From sequence record PP400777: a stretch of DNA of 64,000 nt; one strand, written 5' to 3'. The stretch is from Escherichia phage JM10. The notes under the pieces are model-generated. The model ran no database searches and was not told the DNA's origin. It worked only from the letters and a program-made list of their open reading frames with translations. Below are positions 5,252 through 64,000 of the stretch, in pieces. Each line of letters opens with the position of its first letter. The first letter of the stretch is position 1. Position numbers and translations under genes: made by a program.

Positions 5252-5920
5252 TTATTTTAATGTTACGAAAGAAGAATTACGAGTTTCACGAATTAGAACT
5301 GATCCATCGCGATTAATATAATAAATTAAGCTAAATAATGTTTGGTGAGCAGAAGCGTGCACAAAACTAGTTGGGTGAGATTTCCAATCTGGGGTTTCGG
5401 CTATCCATTGATAAATCCACCAAGGAACAGTAACATATCCTGGGGCTTTGCCTAATTTAATGAGTGTAGGACTAAAATTTTCAGGCAGAACAAAATTTAC
5501 TTCTTTATTTACTTCTGGCTCAGGCTCTTTTTCAGATTCAACAACCTGAGTAATTGCTTCTTCGAATTTATCATGGTCGAATTCTTTTTCTTGTTCGACA
5601 ACTTCTAATACTTCAACTTGTTCTGTTGGAGAATCAAACAACAGAATAGCTTCTTCTTTAACTTCTTCGTTGGTGAAATTAACACCGTCCACATCATCTG
5701 CGGCAGTAATTAAATCAGTAATAGATAATCCATCAGTTTCAGGTAATGGTTCATCAGCCAGTGCGTTAAGAGCTTCTTCGATATCAATAACAATATTATC
5801 GAACGATTTTGTTTTCTTAACACTAATGCCAAATTGTTCTGCATATTCAAACAGTTTAGCTTTAGCTTCCTTTTTATCAGAAAGAGCACGTAACTCTTCA
5901 ATATAGTCTTTATCGATCAT
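5252..5920 (-). CDS. inh: Inh-like protein (inhibitor of prohead protease), acidic
   Basis: 222 aa; position between hoc and uvsW as in T4; identity rests on synteny and size. Confidence 0.55.
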   Translation of the reverse strand: MIDKDYIEELRALSDKKEAKAKLFEYAEQFGISVKKTKSFDNIVIDIEEALNALADEPLPETDGLSITDLITAADDVDGVNFTNEEVKEEAILLFDSPTEQVEVLEVVEQEKEFDHDKFEEAITQVVESEKEPEPEVNKEVNFVLPENFSPTLIKLGKAPGYVTVPWWIYQWIAETPDWKSHPTSFVHASAHQTLFSLIYYINRDGSVLIRETRNSSFVTLK

Positions 5921-58569: not shown

Positions 58570-59046
58570 TTAAAGATGAAGATACCACCCGTTGTAGTTG
58601 CTCTTGCGGATGATTTTCTTTAGGTCTTCATGGTCTCCCACGAACTTTATAGAATAAGAGAAGACGTCAGGTGAGGTTTCTTTGACATTCAATATAATAA
58701 TACAGTCAGCGACTCGATGATTAAGGAAGGGCCCTATGTTGATTCCGTTGCCACCCGGATAATCACCACTGTATCCTGTGGTAACCGAAATCCATTTAGA
58801 ATCTATCTGGTGTGTCTTGACTTCTACACGAATTCCACAATACTTGGGATGGGCTAACACGTCCCATGCATACGTGTACGGGTCTTCTACGTCTTCAATA
58901 CCTTTGTTAACATATCCGTCTAGCCAATTTGCTACTACATACTCTGCAAAGACCGCAACCTTACAACGTCGAACAACGTCTTCTTTTATTTGACCTGGAT
59001 CTTGTTTCAACGAGTACCGAGCAGTATCAGCAATCTTCACCTTCAT
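58570..59046 (-). CDS. hypothetical protein at the T4 denB position
   Basis: ORF track 58570..59190; internal start MKVKIAD (158 aa) avoids overlap with the upstream ORF; identity as endonuclease IV not verified. Confidence 0.4.
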   Translation of the reverse strand: MKVKIADTARYSLKQDPGQIKEDVVRRCKVAVFAEYVVANWLDGYVNKGIEDVEDPYTYAWDVLAHPKYCGIRVEVKTHQIDSKWISVTTGYSGDYPGGNGINIGPFLNHRVADCIIILNVKETSPDVFSYSIKFVGDHEDLKKIIRKSNYNGWYLHL

Positions 59047-59062
59047 TTCACTAGTCAAAAAC

Positions 59063-59350
59063 TCATTCGACAGGATAAATGTCGGAAGACTCTTCAGCCT
59101 CAACAGCCCCAAGTTCGTCTTTATCATAGATACCTCTGATGTGTAGTTCGCCAAAATAAATGCGGTCACCTTCTTCAAGATATTCTGCATCTACCGGCGG
59201 GATTTCAATAACAACTTCGTCACATTCTAACCAGCCATAGTGTGCATCGCCAGGATGTTTTACCAATTTAGCACAATAAACTGATTTACACTTATGATGA
59301 CCACGAAGATTAGCAATTTTGGATTCTGATACGTCAAATGGATGAATCAT
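59063..59350 (-). CDS. hypothetical acidic protein
   Basis: 95-aa ORF downstream of rIIB. Confidence 0.4.
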   Translation of the reverse strand: MIHPFDVSESKIANLRGHHKCKSVYCAKLVKHPGDAHYGWLECDEVVIEIPPVDAEYLEEGDRIYFGELHIRGIYDKDELGAVEAEESSDIYPVE

Positions 59351-59391: not shown

Positions 59392-60318
59392 TTATTCTGC
59401 AAATAATTCAGTAACGTCTGAAATTACTTCGTAACGACAAGTACGCATCTTAGCATCGCCATAGTCAACTGGGATAGATACAACATCACGTGGATGAACT
59501 TTAACCTTAACAACTTTATCTGAGCTAGAACCAAAGTGGCGAATATAAGATTTAGCACAAACGTGGAGACCGCGAGAACAGGTTTGAGTATCATCGTCGT
59601 TAACTCGAGTACGAGGCATTGAAACAACTTTACCTGGGGAGTTATCAAATGTACCACTATAGCAGTCTAAATAGTCCTTACGAACTACTTTCCACGCATA
59701 GAAATGACCATCTTCAGTGATTTCAATATCATTTGCAACCAAGAAGTCGAATAAACGTTGTACAGCTTTTTCGCTCGGGTTTTCTAACAGGTTTTCAAGG
59801 AATGGCAGATAGAATTTAAAGTCTTCACCTTTTTCCATAGAATCAATAATACGATTAACCAGGCCAGAACGAATCTCTATACCTTGATAAAATAAACTAC
59901 CACCTTCAATAACAACATTACCGTCAACAAACTTACTAATAGCTTTCTTGATGTTAATAAGTTCGACAGCTTTACTAAGGTTTCCTGCGACCAGATTAGC
60001 TTTAATTTCTTCAAAATTTGCATGACTTGATGGAGTCGCATTGTATGCTACGCGTCCTTCAATAATTGAAATAAATTTAGATGACGCGTTCCATACGATT
60101 TCAGGACGATGGCCGCCGATAATAGGTTCATCATTTTCTGGAACTTCTTCAACTTTCGAAGTCTCATCTTCGGCTTTAAAATTCTTAACAATCTTACGAA
60201 GAGTATCTGTTGAAATGTCGAAGTAATCAGCAATTTCCCGACGGGTCCATTGACCTGATTCAACCAGTCTGTAAGCTTCTAACTGTTCTTCTTGGGACAA
60301 GCATTTGATATTGTACAT
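59392..60318 (-). CDS. rIIB: rIIB protein
   Basis: 308 aa; near-identical C-terminal half to recalled T4 rIIB. Confidence 0.93.
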   Translation of the reverse strand: MYNIKCLSQEEQLEAYRLVESGQWTRREIADYFDISTDTLRKIVKNFKAEDETSKVEEVPENDEPIIGGHRPEIVWNASSKFISIIEGRVAYNATPSSHANFEEIKANLVAGNLSKAVELINIKKAISKFVDGNVVIEGGSLFYQGIEIRSGLVNRIIDSMEKGEDFKFYLPFLENLLENPSEKAVQRLFDFLVANDIEITEDGHFYAWKVVRKDYLDCYSGTFDNSPGKVVSMPRTRVNDDDTQTCSRGLHVCAKSYIRHFGSSSDKVVKVKVHPRDVVSIPVDYGDAKMRTCRYEVISDVTELFAE

Positions 60319-60327
60319 AATGTTTCC

Positions 60328-62541
60328 TTATTTGGCCGCTTCCACGGCCTTCATGAATTTAACGATTTGAGCGACCTGTTCTTTGGAAAGAGCACCACGT
60401 CGTCCCATGTATTCTGACACAATATGATAATTGGTTTCGAATTCAATAACCATTTTATCATCATTATCGTAAGCATTATCTTTAAGCTTATCGAAAATTT
60501 TAGCACACAATTCTAACTTCTTATTCAGGTCTGTATTAGTAGCACCTGCGAATCGATTCCATCCCCAGCGATTATTTACTGTGGAGAGTTTTGCAAAATC
60601 TTTACTGATTTCTTTGTTCTTAGAGCTAAAATACTTACTAAGGAAGTTAAGCTCTTCATTACGAGTAATATGATTCAAATAAGGCTGTGCTCTACGACTT
60701 GGTGATACATACTCATCATAATCCACTTTATCAATTAGCGTAATATAGTCATTAATTGATTTTTCGAACAAGCATTCTACTTCACCAAGTTTACGAACTT
60801 TCTTAGCAATCTGTGGACGGACTACAGTGAACTCTTTAATATCTGACAAATCAGCAATACGGGTCAAGAAATTAGAGTCATAGTTCAACCAACCTTTATC
60901 TGCGTCAAGACATTCAGCATTAGAACGATTACGAACTATAGCATAACCTTGGATTTCACCAGCTTCACTCGCTGGAATAAAGAGATCTTCCGATACCCAA
61001 ACATCGTTTTCATTCTTAAAGAACCGATGAGCACTTGGGGATTTAGGACGAGGCTGGGATGAACGTTCTTTAACTTCAATCCACGGTTTAACTAATGCAA
61101 GAATTTCAGATGTCTTATAAAATTTAAGGCTATCACCAGCGAAAATAACCTTTAATCGTTCCAGAAGTTTCATTGCAACTTCATCTTCCGGGTTAATGAA
61201 TAATACGCTACTACCCCATCCGGAAGGAACCTTATCAACGAGTGTTGATGCATCGGTGGAAGTCAAAGCATCGTTCAGAGCACGCATCATTGGTACGCGG
61301 CCTTTCACATCGTCAATAACGATATCAATATGCTTACGACTAATACCTAGCAGGCTATTAATTGAAATAGTTGCAGACGAGCTTCCGCTTTCACGAATAC
61401 GACGAAGTCGTGGGTCTGAAACTATATCATATACAACGCCAAGGTTGCACCATTCAGGTCCCATTTTAAAACGTTTGTACAACTCAGAATAAGTTAGTTG
61501 TTCTTTAGAGTATTTCAGTGATTCGATATTAGAACCGGCTTTTTCCATATATTTACGAGCAGAGTAACCAAGAGAATCGATTTCACGGAATACATGACGT
61601 GGATATTTACAATCAATCCATTTCTTAGAATCTTCAGCGAACAATTTAGCATCGATTTCTGCAACGCGTTTATGGATATTTGCTACTGTACGTTTATCAA
61701 ATGACAATGCTTCACGAGACGGGGCTACATCTAGTTCACCCATAGGGAATTTAATATAAGCTGTAGTGCATCGCGTCATCATCCATGTTTGTTCTTTAAT
61801 AACACTTCCAATTGGATATACAATACCACCATAAACAGCCATGATATTACCACGTTCACCCCATGGAGCTTCCTTGGCTAAATAAACATCATCGAATTCC
61901 GGGAAGTATTTGATATCTTTAACACCACGAACTTCTGCAATATTGCCGAGAGGACGCATAACATAAGCAATTTCGGATGCGAACTTTTCAAAATCTTCTG
62001 GGTTAACAGGCACAACTACTTCTACACCCGTACGGTCATCAGGGCCCATCTTATCTACAAAGGTTGGCTTAATTTGTGGACCCGTGTCATCTTGGTAGAT
62101 TACGTAACCACGAACTTCACCGTTGTGATAAGACGTAAGGTTAAACGTATCGGTATATGCTAGTGGAGCTTTAGAGCCGAGTCCGAATCCACCAATAAAA
62201 TCGTTACTCGATGTTTTAGTTGAAGCAAAATATGAGTTATAAATTCCTGGTTCTTCATCATTACCACGAATAGTGAAATCACTCATACCAGGACCAAAGT
62301 CTCGAACTACAAAACGTGGGTCTAAACGACCTGGAGCCTGAACAATAAACTTATCAGTGCAACCATTAAGAATTTGTCCATCGATACAGTTTGTGATTAA
62401 TTCACGTACACAAGCCAATTCTTTGTTTGTATAAAGGTCATTAGACAAAATCTTATAAACTTTGCTATTGCCTTGAATAGTGAATGCTGTGCTCTTACCG
62501 CCTGAACCAATAATCGTTTCTTTAGCCGTTTCAATAATCAT
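60328..62541 (-). CDS. rIIA: rIIA protein
   Basis: 737 aa; N-terminal GHKL-type ATPase-like region; synteny rIIA-rIIB. Confidence 0.92.
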   Translation of the reverse strand: MIIETAKETIIGSGGKSTAFTIQGNSKVYKILSNDLYTNKELACVRELITNCIDGQILNGCTDKFIVQAPGRLDPRFVVRDFGPGMSDFTIRGNDEEPGIYNSYFASTKTSSNDFIGGFGLGSKAPLAYTDTFNLTSYHNGEVRGYVIYQDDTGPQIKPTFVDKMGPDDRTGVEVVVPVNPEDFEKFASEIAYVMRPLGNIAEVRGVKDIKYFPEFDDVYLAKEAPWGERGNIMAVYGGIVYPIGSVIKEQTWMMTRCTTAYIKFPMGELDVAPSREALSFDKRTVANIHKRVAEIDAKLFAEDSKKWIDCKYPRHVFREIDSLGYSARKYMEKAGSNIESLKYSKEQLTYSELYKRFKMGPEWCNLGVVYDIVSDPRLRRIRESGSSSATISINSLLGISRKHIDIVIDDVKGRVPMMRALNDALTSTDASTLVDKVPSGWGSSVLFINPEDEVAMKLLERLKVIFAGDSLKFYKTSEILALVKPWIEVKERSSQPRPKSPSAHRFFKNENDVWVSEDLFIPASEAGEIQGYAIVRNRSNAECLDADKGWLNYDSNFLTRIADLSDIKEFTVVRPQIAKKVRKLGEVECLFEKSINDYITLIDKVDYDEYVSPSRRAQPYLNHITRNEELNFLSKYFSSKNKEISKDFAKLSTVNNRWGWNRFAGATNTDLNKKLELCAKIFDKLKDNAYDNDDKMVIEFETNYHIVSEYMGRRGALSKEQVAQIVKFMKAVEAAK

Positions 62542-62553
62542 ATTTTTCTCTCA

Positions 62554-62754
62554 TCACAAGTTACGTTTAAAAATTTCTGCTACTTCAAGAAGTTCTTCTT
62601 TAGTAGCTGTATCGGTTTGTATTTTATATCGAATTTCTTTAAAGCGTTCTTTAAAGGACTCTGCTGACTCGATATCAAAAAATCTTTGGATAAGCCGGAA
62701 TTCCCGGAGCACTGCTTTATCAAAAAGTTCCAAGTCCACGTTATATGTTCTCAT
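62554..62754 (-). CDS. rIIA.1-like small protein
   Basis: 66-aa ORF immediately upstream of rIIA. Confidence 0.55.
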   Translation of the reverse strand: MRTYNVDLELFDKAVLREFRLIQRFFDIESAESFKERFKEIRYKIQTDTATKEELLEVAEIFKRNL

Positions 62755-62779
62755 AATATTCTCTTCAGTAGATTCCTAG

Positions 62780-62830
62780 GGCACTATTACTAAAGACCAT
62801 ATAATCTATCATCTTATGTGTAATAGTGCC
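62780..62830. repeat. 11-bp perfect inverted repeat (GGCACTATTAC / GTAATAGTGCC) with 29-nt spacer
   Basis: Lies in the 92-bp gap between the glycosyltransferase-like ORF and rIIA.1. Confidence 0.7.
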
Positions 62831-62846
62831 TCAGGCGATTCAGGAT

Positions 62847-63947
62847 TTACGCTGTGAAGATTTTATCCCACATCGCAACAACTGCATCTCGGTTATACTT
62901 CTTCCATACTGCTTCAGCACGTTTAACTCGAGCTTCGTATGTGTCAGTGAATTCTAATACAGCTTTTGTGTAAAGCGCAACTACTTCTTTCTTAGGAGTA
63001 GAGGAATCAATTTCTACACGCACAGTATCTGGGTCGTATTCGAATGTCGCATGAGGATAATCCTTAAAAACTAACTGGATTACAGGGACACCTTTAGAGA
63101 TGGCTTCAATAGAACTATTCTCTACCGTACCTGTGTCAGGACACGTATTAATAAGTGCTTTAGCTGTTTTAAGACGTTCCATGATTTCACTGTGTGGAGC
63201 ATCAATAATAACAGGATATTTAGCTGGTGGGGCCCATTTGCTTGGACAATAACCAATACCATTTTCGCCTAGTGCTTTAATTGCTTCGAGAGCAACATCA
63301 GTACGACGCATTTTAGTGTCATAACGTTGTGCACTAATAATCAGATCAGTCGCCGGAAGAACTTCAGGTTTCTCATTCAAACAAATAACCGGATAATCTT
63401 CGGCTTCAAACAACGGATTTGCTCGCCAATAATCATAATCAATTTTGTCAGTCAGACCTGAAGTCATATAACAATATTTGCGTTCAAATTCACGGAAGGC
63501 TTTAGTAGGAGCATAACTCTTACCACCGTTCTTATGAATTTGAATAGTCTGGTCCCAAATTTGAACAATGCCACGAGATACCGGTTCAAATGGTGTTGCC
63601 ATAAAATTCTTATGAACTTTAGAGAGACCTGCGTCTTTAATTGCCTGAACGGTTAGTTTAGTCGGTTCCATAGTAACAACAAAATCGTATTCATGGATGC
63701 CGGCTAGTTCAACAATCTTACGAGCCATAGTATAACTCATACCTAGACTGAATTTTGTCAGATGACCAACAGGATGATGATTAACCTTCCAATCACCAAA
63801 TGTGTCATTATCAAAACCGATATAATCAATATCAGCACCGATGGACACAAGATATTTCAACACATTTAAATGTACTGCTTCAAGACCACCTTGTACACGG
63901 TCAGGATTAAATGGGACTGCGCGAGATGGGATAAACATAACTTTCAT
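62847..63947 (-). CDS. putative GT-B fold glycosyltransferase (GT4-like), 366 aa
   Basis: N-terminus MKVMFIP...PFNPDRVQGGLEAVHLNVLKYLVSIGADIDYI resembles the GT-B N-terminal signature; C-terminal TGTVENSSIEAISKGVPVIQ resembles the nucleotide-sugar-binding EA..G.PVI motif. Confidence 0.45.
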   Translation of the reverse strand: MKVMFIPSRAVPFNPDRVQGGLEAVHLNVLKYLVSIGADIDYIGFDNDTFGDWKVNHHPVGHLTKFSLGMSYTMARKIVELAGIHEYDFVVTMEPTKLTVQAIKDAGLSKVHKNFMATPFEPVSRGIVQIWDQTIQIHKNGGKSYAPTKAFREFERKYCYMTSGLTDKIDYDYWRANPLFEAEDYPVICLNEKPEVLPATDLIISAQRYDTKMRRTDVALEAIKALGENGIGYCPSKWAPPAKYPVIIDAPHSEIMERLKTAKALINTCPDTGTVENSSIEAISKGVPVIQLVFKDYPHATFEYDPDTVRVEIDSSTPKKEVVALYTKAVLEFTDTYEARVKRAEAVWKKYNRDAVVAMWDKIFTA

Positions 63948-63973
63948 AATTAAGCCTTATTAAAATTAAAATG

Positions 63974-63991
63974 AAGCTCCCGAAGGAGCTT
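63974..63991 (-). terminator. hairpin AAGCUCC-UUCG-GGAGCUU then U/A-rich tract
   Basis: 7-bp stem with tetraloop upstream of the glycosyltransferase-like ORF; likely terminates the gene beyond the window edge. Confidence 0.55.
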
Positions 63992-64000
63992 AGGACATCC

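Follow-up and report, generated by a model that had tools for sequence, protein, structure and literature searches.

A GT-B glycosyltransferase gene upstream of rIIA.1 in Escherichia phage JM10 probably encodes a chain-extending DNA arabinosyltransferase

The sequence analysed here, referred to below as the window, is a stretch of 64,000 nucleotides from Escherichia phage JM10 (sequence record PP400777). An earlier note, made from the letters alone, had drawn attention to an open reading frame (ORF) of 366 amino acids near the end of this stretch and had proposed that it encodes a glycosyltransferase; the ORF listing bears out the frame, its ATG start and its location on the minus strand (Table 1). 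In the sense direction the ORF lies directly upstream of rIIA.1, which is followed by rIIA, and its start codon is preceded at a distance of 8-11 nt by a Shine-Dalgarno-like motif that is unchanged in phages F27, NRG-P0074 and HY126. Over its last 12 kb the window matches Mosigvirus genomes (among them phages moha, a20 and APCEc01) at about 96-97% identity and, judged by this, it is part of a Mosigvirus (RB69-like) genome; RB69 is a member of the same genus (PMC13390438).

Table 1. Position and evidence for the features of the locus, in window coordinates
Feature	Position	Strand	Evidence
rIIA, 737 aa, landmark	60328..62541	-	ORF listing; annotation in relatives
rIIA.1, 66 aa, downstream landmark	62554..62754	-	ORF listing; F27 and HY126 annotation
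Conserved intergenic hairpin: 11-bp perfect core, 29-nt loop, no U-tract	62775..62835	-	Inverted-repeat scan, RNA folding, shuffles
GT-B glycosyltransferase CDS, 366 aa	62847..63947	-	ORF listing, PDB 9iqz/9ir0, PHROG 8302, Foldseek
Shine-Dalgarno-like AAGG, 8-11 nt 5' of the ATG of the ORF	63955..63958	-	Read from sequence
Terminator-like hairpin AAGCTCC-TTCG-GGAGCTT, then CATTTTAATT	63974..63991	-	Consensus scan

At the equivalent place T4 has the order rIIA.1 - 60 - 60.1 - mobA - 39, and its glucosyltransferase genes are elsewhere, b-gt near 24 kb and a-gt near 37 kb. The comparison with T4 in the earlier note, which placed 60, mobA and 39 upstream of rIIA.1 and the two glucosyltransferase genes elsewhere, is thus correct. 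The T4 gap that corresponds to the one between the ORF and rIIA.1 holds an early-promoter-like element, GTTTAC-17-TATAAT. In the Mosigvirus relatives examined, the glycosyltransferase gene sits between rIIA.1 and gene 39. Whether genes 60 and 39 follow beyond the window, as the earlier note had wished to see, was looked up in close relatives: what follows there is an unsplit gene 39 of 1818-1821 bp (605-606 codons), with either a homing endonuclease or nothing in between. HY126 carries its copy at the identical locus, adjoining rIIA.1, and has no homing endonuclease. The 53 nt of the window that lie 5' of the ORF are identical to F27 and NRG-P0074 and, as the homing endonuclease and gene 39 end with the same codons, they fit both as the upstream gene.

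Two putative RNA structures flank the ORF. The terminator-like hairpin, located 3' of the stop codon of the upstream gene and 26 nt 5' of the start of the ORF, is kept in F27 and NRG-P0074 and shows one loop change in HY126; taken alone it is weak evidence, because chance predicts one site of this kind in the region. On the other side, 11 nt past the stop codon of the ORF and 20 nt ahead of the rIIA.1 start, the 11-bp inverted repeat described in the earlier note (62780-62830) proved to be real. Its perfect arms (62780-62790 and 62820-62830) extend to 16 nt with 88% complementarity (62775-62790 and 62820-62835), only 22 of 20000 shuffled versions of the intergenic region contained a perfect 11-bp inverted repeat, and the folding energy of the sense-strand RNA is -28.5 kcal/mol (z = -4.47). 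Conservation of the hairpin in 154 Mosigvirus records is 97.5% or higher, a level of identity that makes a covariation test impossible. A single substitution is informative, in HY126: pairing is kept as G-U on the sense RNA only, where the fold remains at -28.1 versus -28.5 kcal/mol, and the antisense fold is weakened to -19.8 versus -23.8 kcal/mol. This hints at a structure acting in the mRNA of the coding strand, where the hairpin probably forms; nothing links it to the function of the enzyme. We rejected an intrinsic terminator, as the hairpin lacks a U-tract, and a sigma-70 promoter, as a promoter scan gave no site there.

The identity of the protein is best seen from its closest characterized relative. 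A phmmer search of PDB sequences returned a single match, entries 9iqz/9ir0, covering residues 1-366 with E = 3e-250. The titles of these entries, released on 2025-07-16 and read through Foldseek, are 'phage HY126 glycosyltransferase' and 'phage HY126 glycosyltransferase with UDP'; presumably these apo (9iqz) and UDP-bound (9ir0) structures are the work of He et al., Nat Chem Biol 2026. The JM10 protein and the crystallised chain are identical at 361 of 366 residues, differing by five substitutions (N56T, Y160H, G164A, I231V and S315F), and the two genes share the locus next to rIIA.1 in genomes related at the genus level; HY126 differs further in its lack of the homing endonuclease that some relatives have upstream. 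Binding of a nucleotide-sugar donor by the JM10 enzyme may be expected by proxy, from the title of 9ir0. PHROG 8302, labelled "unknown function", likewise matches residues 1-366 of 366 (E = 2.7e-223), the protein of phage F27 is 100% identical, and homologues with at least 95% identity are present in about 155 Mosigvirus records, nearly all of them under the label "hypothetical protein". Neither Pfam, even at E <= 10, nor NCBIfam has a family for the protein, so that no curated family name can be attached to it directly. The maximal Kyte-Doolittle mean over a 19-residue window is 1.07; the protein therefore has no hydrophobic or membrane segment, and its sequence is consistent with a soluble enzyme.

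The gene is the orthologue of RB69 ORF003c/gp3 (RB69p003), and gene, family and crystal structure are already known from published work. Orthology was judged on the common length of 366 aa, the position between rIIA.1 and gene 39, and the genus; no functional difference from RB69 gp3 was detected, the function of gp3 being itself a published proposal.

Structure prediction gives the same class of enzyme. The AlphaFold2 model was built from a 6-sequence alignment and is of low confidence because homologues are so few (mean pLDDT 59.6, residues 116-187 below 50); we used it for recovery of experimental structures and for fold class, not for residue-level claims. Within these bounds, DSSP finds strands and helices alternating in both halves of the model, as in two Rossmann-like domains, and Foldseek recovers the experimental HY126 structure with a TM of 0.71. 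The remaining top matches are all GT-B enzymes, namely PimA, BshA, tetrahydrobiopterin glucosyltransferase, MshA, WaaG, PglA and GtfA, with E around 1e-9 to 1e-7 and identity of about 10-14%. By this modelling the protein is a GT-B fold enzyme.

The sequence motifs on which the earlier note had based its family call can be placed through profile comparison. Among members of the protein family, the two weakest matches, the remote outliers P0015 and P0016, are the only ones with Pfam GT4 domains, and P0015 passes the Pfam Glyco_transf_4 model with 31.9 bits against a cut-off of 28.5. Alignment of the family profile to P0015 with hhalign extends over 323 columns (probability 92.8%, E = 4e-7). It pairs G20-G21-L-E with GG-V-E, which upholds the GT-B/GT4-like N-terminal signature in the form of a GG loop, and E281-A-I-S-K-G-V-P-V-I with F-E-A-A-Q-R-G-I-P-I-V, which upholds the C-terminal EA..G.PVI-type motif (E281-A-x-x-x-G286-x-P288-V289). 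Together with the near-identity to the HY126 enzyme and the Foldseek matches to GT-B enzymes, this alignment backs the assignment to glycosyltransferases; neither a match to a non-glycosyltransferase family nor divergent homology to a T4 gene of unrelated function was found. The EX7E motif is a different matter: in P0015 it reads E-TFGISNF-E, and its first Glu aligns with G273, while the second is kept as E281. The family has an invariant E276 of its own, giving E-x4-E spacing. With the first Glu missing, mechanism and stereochemistry cannot be read by analogy with GT4. The enzyme shares with bacterial GT4-type enzymes (PimA, BshA, MshA and WaaG) the overall fold, the N-terminal GG loop and the E-A-x-x-x-G-x-P-V motif; it differs from them in having Gly273 for the first EX7E Glu, and in that they act on lipid or small-molecule acceptors, whereas its proposed acceptor is a sugar borne on DNA.

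Is this enzyme related to the DNA glucosyltransferases of T4? The family profile recovered only the HY126 entry among PDB sequences. Aligned with hhalign to T4 a-gt and b-gt it gave probabilities of 0.6% and 0.1%, and it showed no relationship with the first glycosyltransferase of the Mosigvirus arabinose cluster; since the profile is shallow (Neff 1.8), these null results show non-orthology and not absence of superfamily kinship. With much deeper profiles, Thomas et al. obtained no more than superfamily-level similarity to the T4 glycosyltransferases in HHpred (PMC6024577, Table 3). We therefore reject the view of the ORF as a displaced agt or bgt, and regard the protein as a separate GT-B lineage. 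Its proposed likeness to the T4 enzymes lies in their being phage GT-B enzymes that transfer from a UDP-sugar onto a modified cytosine of DNA, protecting this DNA from host nucleases; the T4 enzymes differ in using glucose, in having the hydroxymethyl group of hmC as acceptor, in their genome positions, and in the lack of a sequence link with a shallow profile.

Among the hypermodifications of phage DNA, arabinosylated 5-hydroxycytosine has been resolved only recently. Mosigvirus DNA that bears it is protected against many restriction enzymes and against some CRISPR systems, and is laid open to some modification-dependent nucleases. In 2018 Thomas et al. found arabinose in RB69 DNA and, from HMM and HHpred searches, named ORF003c (366 residues) as candidate arabinosyltransferase with a likely GT-B fold; they also saw homologues of it in JS09, in Shf125875 and in Acinetobacter phages (PMC6024577). 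In the revised chemistry of Lee et al. (2026), cytosine gives way to 5-hydroxycytosine, which a homologue of thymidylate synthase produces as a nucleotide and which in RB69 bears beta-D-Araf-3-alpha-D-Araf (PMC13326640). Their Table 1 lists RB69p003 as 'beta-arabinosyltransferase 2', and in their proposal the first sugar comes from gp46:47 and the second from gp3; their experiments leave the site of the first arabinosylation unsettled. In vitro, DLP3 gp76 and gp77 jointly transfer a third arabinose from UDP-Araf to RB69 DNA, and the individual DLP3 glycosyltransferases are inactive alone, including on 5hoC DNA (PMC13326640). The Durham-collection paper credits Mosigviruses with two putative DNA arabinosyltransferases. 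In the BASEL collection, Bas46 and Bas47 are reported to have doubly arabinosylated DNA (PMC12923530) and, according to a passage of PMC13216743 that cites Mahler et al., Bas46 without the arabinosyltransferase "Aat" is sensitised to a defence system.

The ORF family accompanies this pathway, at varying distance. In F27, whose protein is identical to that of JM10, the arabinose cluster lies between uvsX and the DNA polymerase gene, about 22 kb from the ORF homologue. It encodes a kinase-like protein, a first glycosyltransferase of 299 aa, a ThyA homologue, a collagenase-like protein and a nucleotidyltransferase, as well as a small phosphatase-sized ORF and an isomerase-sized ORF. The corresponding region of JM10 falls outside the 64-kb window, and presence of the cluster is expected from relatives that are about 97% identical. 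In Acinetobacter phage Berthold, two paralogues of the ORF product end the arabinose cluster, right after the first glycosyltransferase and the kinase. These paralogues, orf075 (44% identity) and orf074 (41%), are homologous to the JM10 protein over its full length and correspond to DLP3 gp77 and gp76, and the gene order is that published for DLP3, gp83 to gp76. The genomes examined that have a member of the ORF family, F27 and Berthold, thus also carry an arabinosylation cluster. Members from Mosigvirus and those from Acinetobacter phages are about 43% identical and have some 100 invariant positions in common, including R208, E276, E281 and G286-x-P288-V289, and none of the five HY126 substitutions falls on any of these named residues.

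The family is extremely narrow: a set of 1.84 billion proteins yielded 12 representatives at E <= 0.001, and one of 5.8 billion yielded 5 clusters. By tblastn the first glycosyltransferase occurs in 348 phage records, with Klebsiella, Serratia, Enterobacter, Proteus and Yersinia among the hosts, and the ORF family in just 211, from Mosigvirus, Acinetobacter phages and one Tegunavirus. In other words, a gp46:47-type enzyme is present in all 348 arabinose-cluster records, against 211 for the ORF family, which has one copy in Mosigvirus and two in Acinetobacter phages. Thanatos, part of the same phage collection, gave no ORF-family homologue by tblastn, and the Serratia 92A1 cluster has no glycosyltransferase of this family, its kinase being followed by an annotated DNA repair protein at the uvsX position. 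Thanatos-1 is reported to be mono-arabinosylated and to have a single arabinosyltransferase (PMC13326640), and the reported chemistry as a whole is mono-arabinosyl for Thanatos, di-arabinosyl for RB69, NP and Bas46/47, and tri-arabinosyl for DLP3 (PMC13326640, PMC13390438 and PMC12923530). Zero, one and two copies of the ORF family are thus correlated with one, two and three arabinoses on DNA, which is the pattern expected of a chain extender and argues against a base-proximal transferase.

We consider it very probable that the ORF product is a DNA arabinosyltransferase of the 5-hydroxycytosine/arabinose pathway. Within this pathway it is most likely the second, chain-extending transferase and not one acting on the base: we propose, with good but lesser confidence, that it attaches the second D-arabinofuranose, with alpha-Araf-5-hydroxy-dC of the DNA as its acceptor. 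In this proposal donor, acceptor, linkage and action on polymer DNA would follow from the proposals of Lee et al. and from the activity of the Acinetobacter-phage paralogues in vitro. The scheme would run as follows. Cytosine of the Mosigvirus genome would be replaced by 5-hydroxycytosine, on whose 5-oxygen a first transferase (gp46:47 in RB69), encoded in the arabinose cluster about 22 kb away, would place an alpha-D-arabinofuranose. The soluble GT-B enzyme studied here would then take UDP-D-arabinofuranose as donor and lengthen this first arabinose on the DNA polymer, most likely to beta-D-Araf-(1->3)-alpha-D-Araf-5-O-dC, as in RB69-type virion DNA; the bulkier glycan may guard the DNA against restriction enzymes and other DNA-targeting defences. 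The earlier note had suggested an additional or alternative DNA-sugar transferase in a context of glucose and hmC. The transferase part of this suggestion stands, on orthology to RB69 gp3 and near-identity to the HY126 enzyme; its context has to be replaced, the sugar being in all likelihood D-arabinofuranose and the base 5-hydroxycytosine.

The roles of the two transferases could also be reversed, the ORF enzyme acting first, next to the base, and the in-cluster gp46:47 serving as extender. Such was the original proposal, inasmuch as HMM and HHpred searches made ORF003c 'the' candidate arabinosyltransferase (Thomas et al. 2018, PMC6024577), and it draws further on the unsettled site of first arabinosylation and on the inactivity of single DLP3 glycosyltransferases on 5hoC DNA (PMC13326640). 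This reversal is nevertheless unlikely: neither Thanatos, which is mono-arabinosylated, nor the Serratia 92A1 cluster has a member of the ORF family, and both retain a gp46:47-type enzyme, this type accompanies 348 of 348 arabinose clusters against 211 for the ORF family, and copies of the ORF family increase with glycan length. A second alternative is that the protein works only within a complex that includes another glycosyltransferase, or that it is a subunit lending specificity or lacking catalysis. DLP3 gp76 and gp77, which add their third arabinose only jointly and are inactive singly (PMC13326640), provide a precedent, and Gly273 in place of the first EX7E Glu would suit a non-catalytic role. 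Mosigviruses, however, have a single copy of the family, the HY126 protein, which is nearly identical, was crystallised with UDP bound, going by the title of the entry, and about 100 invariant positions at 43% identity are what one expects of an active enzyme, all of which leaves a dependent or non-catalytic role decidedly unlikely. Finally, the idea of a non-DNA target, be it a host envelope glycan, a protein or a small molecule, which the earlier note had kept as another possible substrate, can appeal to the nearest structural neighbours, whose substrates are lipids or small molecules (PimA, BshA, MshA and the tetrahydrobiopterin glycosyltransferase), but is unsupported and most improbable in view of the extreme narrowness of the family (12 representatives and 5 clusters in the two protein searches), its confinement in the phage collection to Mosigvirus, Acinetobacter phages and one Tegunavirus record, the arabinosylation cluster in the genomes examined, within which the Acinetobacter-phage gene resides, and the lack of a membrane segment.

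A functional parallel is offered by the pair DLP3 gp77/gp76, which together extend the arabinose chain on DNA from UDP-Araf. The arrangement differs, with two tandem copies inside the cluster versus one Mosigvirus copy 22 kb away, and so does the outcome, the DLP3 enzymes being mutually dependent in vitro and leading to a tri-arabinosyl product. As regards stereochemistry, an alpha-linked first sugar and a beta-linked second sugar made from one donor anomer would imply opposite outcomes for the two transferases, and one may speculate that the altered EX7E region relates to this opposition. Taking these elements further, it is conceivable, although we would not go beyond a tentative suggestion, that the copy number of the family sets the length of the DNA glycan and that the lineage is an inverting offshoot of a retaining GT4-like clade; the second part is suggested by the missing first EX7E Glu, together with a product proposed to be beta-linked as opposed to the alpha-linked first sugar.

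The practical gain from this analysis is one of annotation: about 150 GenBank records of Mosigvirus name this gene 'hypothetical protein', and it can be annotated as a DNA arabinosyltransferase (putative second, chain-extending enzyme). The gene is also a member of the pathway that is placed apart from the main arabinose cluster. If the copy-number rule were true, the chemistry of the modification would be readable from the genome, and about 137 sequenced phages with the first transferase alone, infecting Klebsiella, Serratia, Enterobacter, Proteus, Yersinia and E. coli (JS10/Bp7 type), would be predicted to have mono-arabinosylated DNA.

The region upstream of the glycosyltransferase gene varies among Mosigvirus relatives. 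A homing endonuclease gene separates the glycosyltransferase gene from gene 39 in F27 and NRG-P0074, and no homing endonuclease is found between these two genes in HY126 (positions 5749-5790 of its locus, L006). The final codons of gene 39 (...WMS*) are duplicated at the 3' end of the homing endonuclease gene, and the sequence arrangement looks as if the endonuclease had been inserted at the extreme end of gene 39. In JM10, the 53 bases upstream of the ORF (window 63948-64000) are compatible with either the presence or the absence of the endonuclease.

These same bases contain a terminator-like hairpin, located directly past the stop codon of the upstream gene and 26 nt ahead of the start of the glycosyltransferase ORF, and no promoter for this ORF was seen in the 53 nt available within the window. 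With such a hairpin ahead of it, the glycosyltransferase ORF would need either read-through or a promoter that went unseen in this stretch. Another hairpin, conserved and devoid of a U-tract, occupies the gap between the glycosyltransferase gene and rIIA.1 (window 62775-62835). In T4, the corresponding gap has instead an early-promoter-like element (GTTTAC-17-TATAAT) and a smaller hairpin. Two further ORFs lie past rIIA.

Features around the glycosyltransferase gene (L001, locus of a Mosigvirus relative)
Feature	Location	Strand	Description
Terminator-like hairpin	window 63974-63991	-	AAGCTCC-TTCG-GGAGCTT, then T-rich tail
Homing endonuclease gene	L001 5161-5958		265 aa
308-aa ORF	window 59392-60318	-	place of the gene annotated rIIB in related Mosigvirus records
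206-aa ORF	window 58570-59190	-	just past rIIA, from the ORF listing

The HY126 glycosyltransferase encoded by the genome record (GenBank PP658200.1, L006 4648-5748) differs from the deposited PDB chain by two substitutions, P288L and V289G. Positions 288-289 fall within the G-x-P-V motif, which is invariant in the family, and the P-V pair is retained in both the JM10 protein and the PDB chain. Judging from these sequences, the two substitutions are probably an error of the genome record.

In the phage collection, the sole match to the glycosyltransferase beyond Mosigvirus and the Acinetobacter phages was a single Tegunavirus record, whose homologue shares less than 60% identity. About 137 phage records of the collection have a homologue of the first arabinosyltransferase (RB69 gp46:47 type) and no member of the gp3-type family; they include phages of Klebsiella, Serratia, Enterobacter, Proteus, Yersinia, Erwinia, Kosakonia and Providencia, as well as JS10/Bp7/VR5-type E. 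coli phages. For these phages the prediction would be either a single arabinose or chain extension by an unrelated enzyme.
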